Position numbers and translations under genes: made by a program. A stretch of DNA of 3,133 nt from a plasmid. Below the pieces are notes generated by a model. It had not been told where the DNA came from. It worked only from the letters and a program-made list of their open reading frames with translations, and did no database searches. The stretch lies in the NCBI RefSeq assembly GCF_057098645.1, contig NZ_JBXSPU010000007.1, one strand, 5' to 3'. Numbering within the stretch: position 1 is the stretch's first letter; every line of letters begins with the position of its first letter. Shown here in pieces: positions 1 through 3,133 of this stretch.

Positions 1-300
1 GATTGTATTGTTTATCGCATTACGCAGAGCAACCTCAATCATCTGGACAAGACAAAAAAAATCGCCAGACAGATCTTGGTAGGCAACGTATGCCCCAACC
101 TTTTCTTGATCAGTAGCGCACCCAAGAAATGTTTCATAGAAAGATAATCTTGGTACAGAAATTGAGCTAATTAAACTTGTTGTATCCATGAAAACTCACT
201 TATCTCTTTACTATGAATATTTTTCAGACTACCATTACAACATTCGAGGAGCAGGCGAACTACCGTTTTTCTGTGTACCTCTAGAGCGTAAAATATAACA

Positions 301-331
301 AAAAAGCCCACTACAGAGTGGGCTTTTTTGT
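301..331. terminator. Bidirectional intrinsic terminator (A-tract / GC hairpin / T-tract)
   Basis: Seen in sequence: A-run 301-306, 8-bp stem agcccact (306-313) pairing with agtgggct (318-325), 4-nt loop acag, T-run 325-330. A-tract upstream and T-tract downstream mean it can terminate on either strand; it would end a minus-strand transcript coming from mobC/cer. Confidence 0.65.
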
Positions 332-430
332 TATATTTATCTATATGAAACAACCAGTTATAGTTATTGTTTCATAATAAGAATTGAATACTCTTCACAA
401 TCCACAACATCAGAAAATACTTTGCTGCCA

Positions 431-458
431 ATTTACCATAACTCCCCTTACGCGCACC
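431..458 (-). other. XerC/XerD site-specific recombination core (cer/dif-like multimer resolution site)
   Basis: Reverse complement of 431..458 reads GGTGCGCGTAA-GGGGAG-TTATGGTAAAT, i.e. 11-bp XerC arm, 6-bp central region, 11-bp XerD arm. The XerD arm is identical to the one I recall for ColE1 cer, and the XerC arm is one mismatch from E. coli dif as I recall it. It sits in a roughly 290-bp non-coding gap of a ColE1-type plasmid. Confidence 0.75.
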
Positions 459-558
459 GCTAAAACGCGCTGAACGCGATTCTGCCGCAAACACCGCAAA
501 AAGAGATGTTTTACCCAGTGAAAACCGGAAAAATGCGTCAGGACCGTTTTCAGCTCAC

Positions 559-572
559 TGCATAGCTATGCA
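559..572. repeat. Perfect 14-bp palindrome TGCATAGCTATGCA; candidate accessory (ArgR-box-like) element of the cer-like site
   Basis: Perfect palindrome seen in sequence, centred about 100 bp on the XerC-arm side of the core. This is where cer-type sites carry accessory sequences bound by ArgR/PepA. Assignment as an ARG box is inference; the half-sites (TGCAT) differ from the TGAAT consensus. Confidence 0.35.
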
Positions 573-647
573 TGAAAGTGAATGGCGATCGGTTTGGGGC
601 CTTACGGCGTTCATACCGTCTGTTTTCGACAGTTTCTCTCCGGGAAG

Positions 648-971
648 CTAATCTGCCATAAGCCTGGATAACAGGGCCCGGTGATACTCCGTAATAGCGA
701 TCAGCACCTCCGCATACTCTCTGTCCCCGACACGCTTGCCGTCGATAAAGAGTTTTTTCTGTAACGCCCCCAGTCTCATAACTTCTTTCAGTACCCGATC
801 ATCAGTCAGTGAGTTAACTTTCTTACCGAGAGCTGCCGCCCGTAAAAAACCGGAAACGGTCTTGCCGCATTCAGCAGCCCTTTTTCTGATTTCCTGGTCT
901 TCTTCTGCCGTCAGACGAACAGGGCGACTGATAGCCCGCCTGCGCGTATTACTTCCACTTCGTTTTGTCAT
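648..971 (-). CDS. mobC: MobC-family relaxosome accessory protein (ribbon-helix-helix N-terminus), 107 aa
   Basis: From track ORF 648..1061 (-). Preferred start is the internal ATG at 969..971 (MTKRSGSNTRRR...), preceded by GGAG 9 nt upstream on the minus strand. The stretch RPVRLTAEEDQEIRKRAAECGKTVSGFLRAAALGKK, followed by DDRVLKEVMRLGALQKKL, fits the MobC pattern (RHH beta-strand plus two helices, then the conserved leucine-rich helix) as I recall it. The track start at 1061 would lie inside the oriT inverted repeat. Confidence 0.7.
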   Translation of the reverse strand: MTKRSGSNTRRRAISRPVRLTAEEDQEIRKRAAECGKTVSGFLRAAALGKKVNSLTDDRVLKEVMRLGALQKKLFIDGKRVGDREYAEVLIAITEYHRALLSRLMAD

Positions 972-990
972 AAAACATGGCTCCGTATCT

Positions 991-1075
991 GACATGGGGT
1001 GTCGGGGCGAAGCCCTGACCAGGGTAATTGTAATAGCGCGCATGTATGCGCGGTATAACAATTACACATCCTGTC
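991..1075 (+). other. Candidate origin of transfer (oriT/bom-like)
   Basis: Directly upstream of mobC and divergent from rom. 996..1023 (GGGTGTCGGGGCGAAGCCCTGACCAG) closely resembles the pBR322 bom-region string GGGTGTCGGGGCGCAGCCATGACCCAG as I recall it. It is followed by a 20-bp imperfect inverted repeat (1024..1065) and then ATCCTG (1068..1073), which resembles MOB_P-type nick cores. Confidence 0.55.
1024..1065. repeat. Imperfect inverted repeat in candidate oriT (arms 1024..1043 and 1046..1065, 17 of 20 positions complementary)
   Basis: Left arm gtaattgtaatagcgcgcat; reverse complement of right arm gtaattgttataccgcgcat; centre at 1044/1045. Seen directly in sequence. Confidence 0.85.
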
Positions 1076-1185
1076 CTGTCAGCAAGTTCGAATTACCGAC
1101 AAAGGCACGGCAGTTTTTTGGCAGTGACAGTATTGTCAGGCAGAAATGCCCGTCAAAGAGTCAGACGACAGAATACCGGCGGCAA

Positions 1186-1214
1186 AACTGTCGAAAAGTG
1201 GTACGCGATATAAT
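1186..1214 (+). promoter_or_regulatory. Possible rom promoter (perfect -10 TATAAT at 1209..1214, weak -35)
   Basis: TATAAT at 1209..1214 lies about 40 nt upstream of the rom ATG. The -35 candidate 17 bp upstream (aactgt) is poor, so this is tentative. Confidence 0.3.
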
Positions 1215-1255
1215 CACACGACGCAGATGACAGACAGAACGGAGAAAACAGAAAG

Positions 1256-1450
1256 ATGAACAAGCAGCAGCAAACCGCACTTAACATGGCAAAATTCATA
1301 AAAAGCCAGAGCCTGACGCTGCTCGAAAAACTGGACTCACTCGATGCTGATGCACAGGCCGCCATGTGTGAGAAACTGCACGAACTCGCAGAAGAACTCC
1401 AGAACAGCATACAGACACGCTTTGAATCGGAAAGTGGCACCGGGGAATAA
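1256..1450 (+). CDS. rom: Rom/Rop (RNA one modulator), 64 aa, ColE1 copy-number control protein
   Basis: Track ORF MNKQQQTALNMAKFIKSQSLTLLEKLDSLDADAQAAMCEKLHELAEELQNSIQTRFESESGTGE aligns along its length with pBR322 Rop as I recall it (MTKQEKTALNMARFIRSQTLTLLEKLNELDADEQADICESLHDHADELYRSCLARFGDDGENL). GGAG lies 11 nt upstream of the ATG; size and position next to a ColE1 origin are as expected. Confidence 0.93.
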   Translation: MNKQQQTALNMAKFIKSQSLTLLEKLDSLDADAQAAMCEKLHELAEELQNSIQTRFESESGTGE

Positions 1451-1684
1451 CAGTGTTCCTACACCAGACAGGATGCAGAACGATATACCGGTGCGTAAGG
1501 AGAAAATACCACATAAGGCGCTCTTCCGCTTCCTCGCTCACTAACTCGCTACGCTCGGTCGTTCGGCTGCGGCGAGCGGTATCAGCTCACTCAAAGACGG
1601 TAATGAGGTTATCCACAGAATCAGGGGATAACGCCAAAAGAAACATGTGAGCAAAAAACAAGAACCCGAAAAAGGCCGCGCCGG

Positions 1685-1700
1685 TGGCGTTTTTCCATAG
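1685..1700 (-). other. Approximate RNA-DNA transition point of the ColE1-type origin (oriV)
   Basis: GGCGTTTTTCCATAGGCTCCGCCCCCCTGAC is conserved with pBR322/p15A; in pBR322 the origin maps in the T-run of this motif (here 1690..1694). Leading-strand synthesis would proceed toward lower coordinates. Confidence 0.6.
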
Positions 1701-2056
1701 GCTCCGCCCCCCTGACGAGCATCACAAAAATCGACGCTCAAGTCAGAGGTGGCGAAACCCGACAGGACTATAAAGATACCAGGCGTTTCCCCCTGATGGC
1801 TCCCTCGTGCGCTCTCCTGTTCCTGCCTTTCGGTTTACCGGTGTCATTCCGCTGTTATGGCCGCGTTATCTCATTCCACGCCTGACACTCAGTTCCGGGT
1901 AGGCAGTTCGCTCCAAGCTGGACTGTATGCACGAACCCCCCGTTCAGTCCGACTACTGCGCCTTATCCGGTAACTATCGTCTTGAGTCCAACCCGGAAAG
2001 GCACGACTTATCGCCATTGGCAGCAGCCACTGGTAACTGATTTAGAGGAGTTAGTC

Positions 2057-2086
2057 TTGAAGTTACGTGCCAGTTAAGGCTAAACT
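2057..2086 (+). promoter_or_regulatory. RNA I promoter (-35 TTGAAG 2057..2062, 17-bp spacer, -10 CTAAACT 2080..2086)
   Basis: Same layout as the pBR322 RNA I promoter as I recall it (TTGAAG, 17 bp, CTACACT); the transcript start falls at about 2093. Confidence 0.65.
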
Positions 2087-2092
2087 GGAAGA

Positions 2093-2196
2093 ACAAGTTT
2101 TGGTGACTGCGCTCCTCTTAAGCCAGTTACCGAGGTTCAGAAACTTGCCGGTTGCTGAACCTTCGAAAAACCACCTTGCCGGGTGGTTTTTTCGTT
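2093..2196 (+). ncRNA. RNAI: RNA I antisense replication inhibitor
   Basis: ACAAGTTTTGGTGACTGCGCTCCTCTTAAGCCAGTTACC... parallels pBR322 RNA I (ACAGTATTTGGTATCTGCGCTCTGCTGAAGCCAGTTACC...). It ends in the hairpin plus U-tract at 2166..2192 and is fully complementary to the 5' part of RNA II. Confidence 0.8.
2166..2192 (+). terminator. RNA I intrinsic terminator
   Basis: aaaaa-CCACC-ttgccg-GGTGG-tttttt: GC stem with U-tract, homologous in position to the ColE1 RNA I terminator. Confidence 0.7.
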
Positions 2197-2200
2197 TTTA

Positions 2201-2229
2201 AGATTACGATGGGCGCGATATGAACTCAA
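2201..2229 (-). promoter_or_regulatory. RNA II (primer) promoter: -35 TTGAGT (complement of 2224..2229), 17-bp spacer, -10 TAATCT (complement of 2201..2206)
   Basis: Minus strand reads cTTGAGTtcatatcgcgcccatcgTAATCTtaaaaacgaaaaaacc, matching the pBR322 RNA II promoter arrangement (TTGAGA, 17 bp, TAATCT) as I recall it. Confidence 0.65.
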
Positions 2230-2299
2230 GGAAATCCGCAATTAAATTATAAAAGTTTGTGGATTAATGGAAAAACTGATGTGAATCAGCTATTTATCC

Positions 2300-2328
2300 T
2301 TAAGATTTGATGTCAGATATGGTATAAT
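2300..2328 (+). promoter_or_regulatory. Candidate sigma70 promoter with extended -10 (TGgTATAAT 2320..2328; -35 TTAAGA 2300..2305, 17-bp spacer)
   Basis: Perfect TATAAT with TG at the extended -10 position, seen in sequence, in an AT-rich intergenic block. Predicted start at about 2335, pointing rightward at the small ORF and palindrome. Confidence 0.45.
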
Positions 2329-2401
2329 TAACCATTCAAATAGATGGAATAAAAAGTCAACGCTGCCATTAGAACGGCATAAGAAATAGAGGATTATGAA
2401 A

Positions 2402-2545
2402 ATGAATACTAAAGTTCTTTTTGTGAAAAAAGCCTTGAAATCAATTACTTGCGCAATTCTTTCGCTCTTACCGGCTTTAAGTCGCGCAGTAACAGAGTTA
2501 CGTAGCCTTTCGGCTGCGCGACTTAAAGCCGGTAAGAGCTTTTGA
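2402..2545 (+). CDS. Hypothetical small basic protein, 47 aa (49 aa if started at ATG 2396); not on the ORF track
   Basis: Shine-Dalgarno AGAGGA (2388..2393) is 8 nt before ATG 2402. Translation MNTKVLFVKKALKSITCAILSLLPALSRAVTELRSLSAARLKAGKSF, TGA at 2543..2545. Both arms of the perfect 26-bp inverted repeat lie inside the ORF, so it may instead be the 5' part of a structured non-coding RNA. No homolog recognised. Confidence 0.3.
   Translation: MNTKVLFVKKALKSITCAILSLLPALSRAVTELRSLSAARLKAGKSF
2464..2539. repeat. Perfect 26-bp inverted repeat (arms 2464..2489 and 2514..2539) with 24-nt spacer, followed by TTTTG
   Basis: Left arm gctcttaccggctttaagtcgcgcag; the right arm is its exact reverse complement. 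The spacer contains a small secondary hairpin (agcc-tttc-ggct, 2504..2515). Seen directly in sequence. Confidence 0.9.
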
Positions 2546-2569
2546 TTGTATCACATTTTTCCTTAAAAG

Positions 2570-3133
2570 TCAACCGGCTACCTTAAGCTCCCTGCACTTA
2601 ATCCTCCCTATAATCCCCATAACATACTCTATCGTGCAGCGTTCATAAAAGCGCCTATCGTGCCCAATAAACTCAATAAGTTCCTTTTTCTCGTTAGAGA
2701 CGATACTCAAGGCATTCATTAAAAAATTGAACTCTTTCAACATATTATTTATGGCTTGACTATGCGACTTGCAGTGGTGTTTTTTCCAAATAGGCTCATG
2801 GTGAAAAAGTCGATTCCTAAACAAAAGAACTTTATGAAACTCGTCAAACAACGCTTTAACCTTCATATCCCCCCCACCCAAAGGATTCTTCGCATGAGGA
2901 AATGTTTTTGCCTTGTTCTCTGGAGTCCAGATGTAGCACGGCCTTTGCGTATCCCTATATGGGGCATCTAACATATAAACCCAAAAGCCAAAGGTTAGAC
3001 GGCAAATAACATCATCATCCGTATACCTTACGCCACACTCATCTAGCGCTTTTTGTTTCGCATTTAAAACAAGATCCTGAGATTTCTTTGTTTGAGGTAT
3101 AGAGTCGTACCAAGCAGGCCCATGATTAGCTTT
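2570..3133 (-). CDS. Abi_2 (AbiD/AbiF-like) abortive-infection family protein with HEPN-type Rx4H motif; C-terminal 187 aa, N-terminus beyond the window
   Basis: Minus-strand frame is open from the window edge (3133) to TGA at 2570..2572; the track ORF 2570..2974 is its internally initiated part. Motifs: LTFGFWVYML, and FRNRLFHHEPIW matching the Abi_2 hallmark R-N-x-x-x-H-H-x-x-(L/I)-W, which contains the HEPN Rx4-6H signature. AT-rich codon usage differs from the backbone. Family call is from motif memory. Confidence 0.65.
   Translation of the reverse strand, partial: KANHGPAWYDSIPQTKKSQDLVLNAKQKALDECGVRYTDDDVICRLTFGFWVYMLDAPYRDTQRPCYIWTPENKAKTFPHAKNPLGGGDMKVKALFDEFHKVLLFRNRLFHHEPIWKKHHCKSHSQAINNMLKEFNFLMNALSIVSNEKKELIEFIGHDRRFYERCTIEYVMGIIGRIKCRELKVAG

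Follow-up and report, generated by a model that had tools for sequence, protein, structure and literature searches.

A NikA-type ColE1-like plasmid with a defence-type cargo in the variable slot beside its cer-like site

The plasmid DNA analysed here, a contig of 3,133 nucleotides (NZ_JBXSPU010000007.1, assembly GCF_057098645.1; hereafter the window, meaning this whole stretch), raises the question of what a core of balanced base composition lying between two AT-rich flanks represents. An earlier note, made from the letters alone, had read positions 420-2210 as a ColE1-type replication and mobilization backbone and the flanks as a defence cargo module inserted into it. The window proved to be one entire circular ColE1-type plasmid of 3133 bp, opened inside a gene that we call abi: twelve PLSDB records of 3133 bp are 99.9-100% identical to it over the full length (megablast), and the window is taken as circular because these records are circular. 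Since it is a circle, the two outer AT-rich parts form one segment. Our best explanation overall, to which we give a probability of about 0.8, is a NikA-type ColE1-like plasmid with a conserved core and an AT-rich defence cargo in a slot common to its family, with Xer-associated turnover of the slot and, in the present case, a HEPN toxin held in check by an RNA. The reading of the earlier note, backbone plus defence cargo, was essentially right; the term "inserted" was not borne out, and several of its labels and limits needed correction.

According to this explanation, the core of about 1.8 kb (431-2229), with a host-like guanine-plus-cytosine (GC) content of about 51%, comprises a cer-like site for dimer resolution, nikA and oriT, rop, and an RNA II/RNA I replicon. 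The nikA gene and the R64-like oriT would serve mobilization by the relaxase of a helper plasmid. The remaining 1.3 kb or so (2232-3133 plus 1-430, 37% GC) fills the single accessory slot of the family, from the XerD arm of the cer-like site to the RNA II promoter, in which other members have unrelated, equally AT-rich and mostly defence-type cargo. Turnover would most likely proceed by XerCD-associated recombination at the cer core together with homologous recombination or deletion in or beside the replicon, and not by transposition. The HEPN protein may be a toxic RNase restrained by the adjacent RNA and freed upon phage infection or plasmid loss.

The composition step and the conserved core

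GC content was 35.1% in 1-419, 50.8% in 420-2210 and 38.9% in 2211-3133, the outer parts having 37.7% when pooled. An unconstrained circular segmentation by maximum likelihood with two breakpoints placed the steps at 442 and 2186 (51.4% against 37.4%), with a log-likelihood ratio of 30.8; the best ratio in 200 base shuffles had a mean of 5.5, a standard deviation of 1.6 and a maximum of 11.2. This result confirms that the balanced core between AT-rich flanks is real and far beyond chance. Both steps were also visible in a sliding profile of 200 nt, and the difference persisted at synonymous sites, GC at third codon positions (GC3) being 40.6% in the cargo gene abi as against 50.9% in nikA and 56.9% in rop. 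The long A/T runs reported for the flanks were indeed more frequent there (runs of at least five: 11.7 per kb in the cargo and 7.9 per kb in the backbone), although this enrichment is only mild.

A step of this kind might also result from functional constraint, with GC-rich stems in RNA I and RNA II and AT-rich promoters, terminators and spacers, rather than from separate origins of the two parts. GC is indeed lowest in the non-coding parts of the cargo (33.2% for 190-430, 34.3% for 2232-2569), and the AT-rich RNA II promoter moves the compositional edge about 40 nt inside the functional one. However, the gap in GC3 remains, the step coincides with the loss of all homology to sister plasmids, and the gene family of the cargo also occurs on unrelated replicons (Rep3, RepL-like). 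We consider constraint as the source of the step very improbable.

The following features were recognised in the core.

431-458, minus strand: cer-like XerCD core, with the XerD arm TTATGGTAAAT (431-441), the central region GGGGAG (442-447) and the XerC arm GGTGCGCGTAA (448-458)
459-647, minus strand: putative accessory region of cer, adjoining the core on its XerC side, with 90-99% conservation in all relatives
648-971, minus strand: nikA-like relaxosome accessory gene, 107 aa (Pfam NikA-like PF21983, 2.8e-18)
1024-1075, plus strand: oriT, with a 20-nt inverted repeat (1024-1043/1046-1065) followed by the nick-region-like CATCCTGT (1068-1075)
1256-1450, plus strand: rop/rom, 64 aa (Pfam Rop, 3e-33, full-length match)
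1640-2193, minus strand, approximate limits: RNA II primer region and origin, with RNA I antisense to its 5' end
2095-2195, plus strand: RNA I, the antisense copy-number regulator (Rfam RF00106, 95.9 bits with a gathering threshold of 47, E 4.9e-18, full model)
2201-2229, minus strand: RNA II promoter, with -35 TTGAGT (2229-2224), a 17-nt spacer and -10 TAATCT (2206-2201), the functional right edge of the backbone

The first of these has the architecture of cer-type sites, in which an XerC arm of 11 bp, a central region of 6-8 bp and an XerD arm of 11 bp follow each other (GGTGCGCGTAA-GGGGAG-TTATGGTAAAT, minus strand, 458-431). Its XerD arm is identical to that of ColE1 cer as tabulated in PMC2410131, whereas the central region has 6 bp against 8 bp in ColE1 cer. 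The site had been placed at about 300-430; the core actually lies at 431-458, and the remainder extends toward higher coordinates. There, the conserved block of about 190 bp on the XerC side is presumed to be the accessory sequence of the site, a role derived from the known architecture of cer (PMC5357621). In cer-type sites, accessory sequences of about 180 bp bind ArgR and PepA.

The adjoining gene, previously labelled mobC, is NikA-like and had no MobC match in Pfam. Its product is a ribbon-helix-helix accessory protein named "mobA" in RefSeq, and the RefSeq protein (WP_000166966.1) is common to the identical record and to three of the related plasmids discussed below (L002, L003 and L005). 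The open reading frame (ORF) list and the Pfam search of the window revealed neither a relaxase gene nor any further long ORF in the backbone, and no ORF with a Rep domain. PLSDB/MOB-suite types such plasmids as "relaxase MOBF" despite the absence of a relaxase gene, and in identical records RefSeq annotates a "replication initiation protein" of 37 aa inside the RNA II region (window positions 1927-2040 approximately). Both look like annotation artefacts. The nick site was assigned within CATCCTGT from the MOBP consensus ATCCTG, which we assume to hold here. The oriT of nikA plasmids has been described as R64-like with 20-bp inverted repeats (PMC9282650), and the repeat in the window agrees with this description.

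The RNA II region is 79-93% identical to that of other ColE1-like plasmids, and thousands of Col-type plasmids fall in this range. We placed the origin on the assumption that it lies as in ColE1 and pMB1, and the hexamers and spacing of the RNA II promoter are those of these two plasmids. The -35 element at 2229-2224 matches the promoter announced at about 2230. The window thus holds what defines a ColE1-like replicon, namely RNA I and an RNA II promoter and primer region without a Rep protein, and also Rop, which many but not all such replicons possess. Together with the cer-like core and the inverted repeat of oriT, the scores of RNA I (95.9 bits) and Rop (3e-33) bear out the assignment of the core to a ColE1-type backbone.

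The variable slot and the turnover of its cargo

We compared the window with its relatives, designated here by L numbers. Six of them, of 2.7-4.1 kb and with unrelated cargo, share with the window only the part running from position 428, 431 or 453 to 2197-2214, at 90-93% identity, and in a seventh, L013, homology likewise ends at the XerD arm. In the junction alignment ATTTACCATAA (431-441) was kept in all seven plasmids and nothing to the left of the XerD arm aligned. The central region of cer had 6, 7 or 8 bp across the plasmids, with five different sequences, independently of the XerC-arm variant. On the right, homology is gradually lost around the RNA I terminator and the start of RNA II; the promoter elements AGATTA and CTCAAG persist in L003, L005 and L006 amid sequence that could not be aligned.

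Three independent estimates of the edges could therefore be set side by side: 442/2186 from composition, 431/2197-2214 from homology, and 431 (XerD arm)/2229 (-35 of RNA II) from function. The view that the edges at 420 and 2210 fall at backbone functions stood in so far as these positions lie within about 10-25 nt of the compositional, homology and functional edges, but the terminator that had been counted on the left is part of the cargo. On the right, the compositional edge (2186-2210) lies some 20-45 nt inside the functional one because the tail of the RNA I terminator and the RNA II promoter are AT-rich.

The cargos of the sister plasmids had 34.5-39.2% GC as against 51.6-52.5% for their own backbones. 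PADLOC matched their proteins to HEC-09 (3.6e-48), PDC-M12B (1.3e-119) and a retron effector with a cold-shock domain (CSD_V, 3.4e-25), and the window cargo to PD-T4-5 (6.6e-30), in line with the view that the AT-rich flanks are accessory DNA with a defence-type gene. Seen one by one, the slots of L001-L006 contained a NERD-domain protein, an NYN/HEC-09 protein with a helix-turn-helix (HTH) partner, a PDC-M12B protein and a cold-shock effector of the retron Se72 type. Judged by these sequences, the slot appears to behave as a miniature defence island. In NikA-type mini-plasmids the slot is given over largely to genes of phage-defence type (PD-T4-5-like, HEC-09, PDC-M12B, retron effector), and high-copy, helper-mobilised plasmids may therefore be a cheap vehicle for the spread of defence genes.

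Comparison with the closest plasmids defined the junctions at 431 and at about 2197-2231, but no cargo-free relative was found among the related plasmids: all carry cargo, and the smallest (2677 bp) keeps 939 bp of AT-rich cargo. The window itself showed no second Xer site, no flanking repeats or target duplication, no terminal inverted repeats and no ORF for a transposase or an integrase/recombinase. These results do not demonstrate a cargo "inserted" into a backbone, and the interval from 2232 through the origin of numbering to 430 is better described as a hypervariable replacement slot of the family. Placement of the cargo by a transposable element or an integron-like cassette is extremely improbable. 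Mobile elements do visit the plasmid, as attested by a chromosomal copy flanked by IS26 and by an IS91 transposase in a 6.5-kb derivative, but the window has no transposase or integrase ORF, terminal inverted repeats or flanking direct repeats, and the junction lies at the Xer arm in every relative.

The title of a paper by Moran and Hall (Plasmid, 2017) reportedly already states that the NikA group has a variable segment beside the multimer resolution site. The same two-compartment pattern was found in enterobacterial ColE1 plasmids, described as gene capture platforms, with 51.7-59.4% GC in conserved and 32.4-52.5% in variable regions (Ares-Arroyo et al. 2018, PMC5864857); the window has 51% and 37%, respectively. 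Whereas those plasmids usually include a MOB relaxase, mobilization here comprises nikA and oriT only. The likeness to the NikA group (pCERC7, NTP16, pU302S) is closer, with the same RNA I/RNA II replicon and rop, NikA in the absence of a NikB relaxase, and an oriT of the R64-like type whose inverted repeats have 20 bp, as in the description of the group (PMC9282650). The variable segment likewise adjoins the multimer resolution site, a cer-like site, and the seven plasmids lose homology exactly at its XerD arm. Described members mostly carry antibiotic-resistance segments, whereas the plasmid studied here has an AbiF/PD-T4-5-like gene. The ColE1 mosaic is thus already described, its layout is ordinary and the plasmid is common in databases. 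The compositional finding is by itself minor, re-deriving a known design in a plasmid sequenced dozens of times. What is gained is base-precise junctions of the cargo slot, at the XerD arm (431) and the RNA II promoter (2229), and the by-products of interest are these edges, the defence content of the slot, a Xer-bounded indel in a close relative and a candidate small RNA partner of abi.

The indel was found in relatives that carry an HTH-RNA-abi module. L013, which is ColE1-like (RNA I, 95.6 bits) and circular as judged by a terminal overlap of 30 nt, has this module in the same slot and orientation as the window. L013 and L014 contain two copies of TGCGACG+TTATGGTAAAT, that is, the cer central region and the XerD arm, one within the true cer core and a second at a distance of 854 bp. 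L015, which is 99.9% identical to both, lacks exactly this 854-bp segment and has a hybrid site. The repeats are located as follows.

L013, 21-31 and 875-885: TGCGACGTTATGGTAAAT direct repeats (central region plus XerD arm)
L015, about 1296-1316: hybrid site

The 854-bp difference looks like the product expected of Xer-type recombination between the two sites. Given the breakpoints at the XerD arm, the variable central regions and this indel, Xer-associated exchange is likeliest on the cer side. Several points weigh against this part of our explanation. L013-L015 are metagenome or read-archive assemblies, and the 18-20-nt repeats could have given rise to the indel by slippage or by recombination that does not involve Xer. 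The window has one Xer site and neither a recognisable second one nor a repeat at the RNA II-promoter junction, so that the arrival of its own cargo is not reconstructable. Homology may break off sharply at the XerD arm for no other reason than that a functional site under selection ends there.

These points lead to a different view of the slot, in which the plasmid can dispense with no part other than the stretch from cer to the RNA II promoter, illegitimate or short-homology recombination fills it without Xer, and selection sharpens the edges. The single Xer site of the window, the fuzzy right junction (2197-2231), the invariance of the XerD arm, which hides the true crossover point, and ordinary homologous-recombination patches at 1000-1900 between close variants all agree with this view. 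On the other hand, the ends of the L013/L015 indel fall exactly at the Xer crossover region, with a clean hybrid site in L015, variation in the central region of cer is independent of the arms, and L023, which is not ColE1-like, has an exact XerD-arm 11-mer about 12 nt past the terminator of its module. We regard a permissive slot without Xer as unlikely, and Xer-associated turnover as the preferred reading. The 11-mer of L023 (TTATGGTAAAT, positions 2231-2241) follows the small-RNA terminator of a RepL-like plasmid with an Integrase_1 gene and an abi homologue, and no recognisable XerC arm was present beside it.

Accessory DNA also adjoins an XerC/XerD core in IMEX elements and in the pdif modules of Acinetobacter. 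Modules of that kind have sites on both sides, as does the 854-bp segment of L013, whereas the window cargo has a Xer site on one side only and its dependence on Xer is presumed. The qnrB19 ColE-like plasmids (Tran et al. 2012) are said to belong to such Xer-dependent modules as well.

The abi gene and its candidate RNA partner

The following features make up the cargo module.

1-189, minus strand: 5' part of abi, with ATG at 189-187, running on at 3133
2570-3133, minus strand: 3' part of abi, codons 64-250 approximately and the stop codon, with the HEPN motif R169-N170-R171-x2-H174
242-340, plus strand: candidate small RNA, divergent from abi, with a 5' imperfect hairpin (246-281) and a Rho-independent terminator (291-338)
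207-235, plus strand: putative promoter of the small RNA, with -35 TTTACT (207-212), a 17-nt spacer and -10 TACCAT (230-235)

Rebuilt across the circular junction (189 to 1, then 3133 to 2570), the abi ORF encodes 250 aa. Its match to the PADLOC model of PD-T4-5 (PDLC04038; 6.6e-30, 102 bits) covers residues 4-229 and profile positions 8-255 of 309. The sequence R169-N170-R171-L-F-H174 (RNxxxH) and, after it, E176-P177-x-W179 do not vary among 34 homologues, of which several carry the annotation PF07751. An AlphaFold2 model built from the alignment of homologues had a mean predicted local distance difference test score (pLDDT) of 95, and its sole meaningful match in the PDB was 8vz6, the PbAbiF dimer bound to its non-coding RNA (Foldseek template modelling score 0.57, probability 1.0). 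A profile search of PDB sequences gave a marginal match only, again to 8vz6 (E 0.43). According to sequence and model, the cargo is a HEPN ribonuclease-type abortive-infection gene, a relative of AbiF/AbiD closest to PD-T4-5.

PD-T4-5, which is encoded on a plasmid and distantly related to AbiF/D, protects against T4 by abortive infection; this protection was demonstrated only for RCQ99930.1, the protein of ECOR34 (Vassallo et al. 2022, PMC9519451). The window protein is of the same plasmid-borne, single-protein type and matches the PADLOC model, but it lacks the last 55 or so profile positions, and sequence similarity is low. AbiF proteins are HEPN RNase toxins neutralised by a cis-encoded RNA (PMC12373285, PMC12737573), and the HEPN RNxxxH fold of Abi is that of PbAbiF-AbiFr (8vz6) and of C. 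difficile AbiF-RCd22. Other observations are less favourable. The Pfam Abi_2 score is 19.9 bits, under the gathering cut-off of 25.6, and concerns residues 33-102 only. With 250 aa as compared to 314 for PD-T4-5, and only about 23-30% identity to relatives annotated as Abi_2, the anti-phage activity of Abi, including defence against T4, is extrapolated. An HTH_17/AlpA-like gene precedes the RNA-abi unit in relatives and is missing in the window, where the module could consequently be deregulated or inactive.

The nearest homologues of Abi outside the lineage are 67-45% identical and lie on small contigs or plasmids, among them a contig of Aeromonas hydrophila and a plasmid of Pasteurella multocida; others are on the Rep3 and RepL-like replicons already mentioned. 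Genes of the family have 30.5% GC on the Pasteurella plasmid, 39.4% in L013 and 42.3% on the Aeromonas plasmid. Because the family is AT-rich in every setting, the low GC of the cargo can be seen as a trait of a horizontally circulating gene pool rather than the mark of a single donor.

The terminator at 291-338, which had been taken as a backbone edge, travels with abi on Rep3, RepL-like and other ColE1-like plasmids; being conserved with abi in plasmids of other replicons, it belongs to the cargo. A 48-nt core preceding it (245-292) is conserved along with the terminator hairpin in the Enterobacterial, Aeromonas and Pasteurella loci, which represent three bacterial orders, at 79-85% as compared to 66-74% for the abi coding sequence. 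This core folds into an imperfect 36-nt hairpin in which the loop is the only part of variable length. Read on the abi-sense strand, 90.4% of the pair cells were standard and all seven exceptions were A·C; on the plus strand the seven exceptions become G·U, so that pairing reached 100%, with at most 68% in slid controls. Compensatory changes on both sides were present in 3 of 11 pairs on the abi-sense strand and in 2 of 11 on the plus strand, and the covariation score was reached by only 3 of 500 shuffles on either strand. The hairpin and terminator of the plus strand had a minimum free energy of -42.9 kcal/mol (z -7.5). An equivalent sigma70-like promoter was found in seven of eight relatives (scores of 8-11 out of 12), its -10 element ending 8-14 nt before the core, and no consistent -10 element of the sense strand was visible by eye within the conserved core. 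The sequences thus predict a candidate small RNA of about 95 nt, located at about 242-340 on the plus strand and divergent from abi, although the prediction is built on only seven sequences, which counts against it.

We searched for known counterparts of this RNA. The Rfam abiF motif (RF03085) had no match at E<=10 in window positions 150-440, nor at E<=1 in nine related loci, and no Rfam family accounted for either of the RNA elements of the cargo, the only hits being sub-threshold leader and miRNA matches driven by the terminators. In PLSDB, matches of the conserved 105-nt leader were confined to the same lineage. A strict scan for the small-RNA motif gave none in genome contigs and two, both of the same lineage, in metagenome contigs, while a loose scan gave 46 matches in genomes and one in viruses, all due to chance and with no abi homologue nearby. 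An anti-Shine-Dalgarno role for the conserved CUCCUCG was rejected: this motif pairs with the ribosome-binding site of abi in only two of eight folds, and the opposite-strand hairpin is preferred.

In the type III AbiF systems (PbAbiF-AbiFr, C. difficile AbiF-RCd22), a similar hairpin of about 36 nt lies directly upstream of the gene, near a Rho-independent terminator. Here, in contrast, the RNA is predicted on the opposite strand and divergent from the gene, with a single motif instead of two, and RF03085 was not detected. By analogy, the small RNA would control the Abi toxin either by binding the protein, as in AbiF, or as an antisense to the abi leader. The RNA and abi are the pair retained in the window, the HTH_17/AlpA-like gene having been lost. 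It is conceivable, and we suggest it tentatively, that this pair is an unrecognised toxin-antitoxin or abortive-infection module of RNA and protein, with a HEPN RNase of 250 aa and a divergent RNA antitoxin of about 95 nt as the minimal functional unit. Within such a two-part module the RNA would bind the protein (type III-like) or act in cis as an antisense on the 5' untranslated region of abi (type I-like), and the pair would circulate on small plasmids of Enterobacterales, Aeromonas and Pasteurellaceae.

A toxin-antitoxin of this kind might serve mainly for plasmid addiction, stabilising its carrier by post-segregational killing, with phage defence not its primary role. AbiF systems do act as type III toxin-antitoxins (PMC12373285, PMC12737573), the gene family is almost only found on small plasmids, and PD-T4-5 was classed as TA-like by Vassallo et al. 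(PMC9519451). However, PD-T4-5 was recovered by selection for T4 resistance (PMC9519451), and cer and a high-copy replicon already give the plasmid stability. Addiction as the main function appears doubtful to us, but the two roles are compatible and do not exclude each other. Our preferred reading, a toxic HEPN RNase held by an adjacent RNA, turns a "hypothetical protein" encoded by about 0.5% of the complete E. coli genomes into an AbiF-like toxin that can be tested along with its candidate RNA partner, and bears on the control of AbiF/Cas13-ancestor systems.

A more distant abi subfamily (about 40% identity) has a different upstream block, with a GC-rich hairpin (GACGGCCAGTCC/GGACTGGCCGTC) followed by about 60 conserved nt (L026, about 430-530; L027, about 2850-2960). 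A hairpin with a conserved non-coding element may be general upstream of such abi genes.

Other cargo elements and the distribution of the plasmid

The remainder of the slot consists of the following elements.

2232-2569, plus strand: lineage-specific AT-rich unit, with a promoter-like site, a 47-aa ORF and a perfect hairpin
2300-2328, plus strand: sigma70-like promoter, TTAAGA-17-TGnTATAAT
2402-2545, plus strand: annotated 47-aa ORF
2464-2539, plus strand: hairpin with a perfect stem of 26 bp and TTTT after it, at 25 nt from the stop codon of abi
341-430, minus strand: AT-rich spacer separating the XerD arm from the small-RNA terminator

The unit at 2232-2569 was found only in the lineage of the window. 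The closest abi relative, L013, does not have it, and there about 67 nt separate the end of abi from the RNA I/RNA II region. In two independent metagenomic assemblies (L020 and L028) the 24-nt loop of the hairpin is inverted and the stem unchanged, which alters most of the residues encoded by the loop, turning AVTELRSLSA into AAERLRNSVT. L020 shows this inversion in both perfect-stem hairpins (2464-2539 and 291-338) and L028 in the large loop only; the reading frame stays intact. We rejected the 47/49-aa ORF as a protein gene: it had no Pfam or PADLOC match, its homologues are confined to the lineage, and its "81% variant" is the flipped hairpin loop. The unit probably yields a small transcript and serves as a bidirectional terminator, and we see in it an RNA/terminator element rather than a protein gene. 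In the spacer, positions 398-413 match the 3' end of the HTH_17 gene of L013, at the equivalent position, in 14 of 16 nt (4 of 500 shuffles were as good), and may, as a weak suggestion, be a remnant of the 3' end of that gene.

The matching 3133-bp records are of E. coli and Salmonella, and their sources were humans, pigs, poultry and water. The cargo DNA is confined to this plasmid lineage, with 24 PLSDB records in a distant blastn search and 27 of 5426 complete E. coli genomes (about 0.5%) in a megablast search; the exceptions were a weak match of the abi gene in Enterobacter and the IS26-flanked chromosomal copy. The latter (L011) lies at about 3.377-3.382 Mb in the chromosome of E. coli strain 44 (NZ_CM132959.1), where the whole 3.1-kb plasmid sits between two directly oriented IS26 copies, adjoining nfsB on one side and a wcaM pseudogene of the colanic-acid locus on the other. 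This integration looks like an IS26 cointegrate.

Two close variants, L008 and L009, diverge from the window by about 1% in the cargo, cer and nikA and by 4-10% across 1000-1900 (oriT-rom-ori). By this comparison, the backbone patch at about 1000-1900 has been swapped by homologous recombination, with one edge near oriT. Given its 4-10% divergence, homologous recombination with other Col plasmids also reshuffles the backbone.

The metagenome scaffold L028 (5129 nt) contains the window plasmid and a second, different ColE1-like segment, fused exactly at the XerD arm, with two directly repeated copies of cer. The scaffold is a heterodimer or cointegrate that arose in nature, or else a chimera created by assembly across the common cer-nikA repeat.

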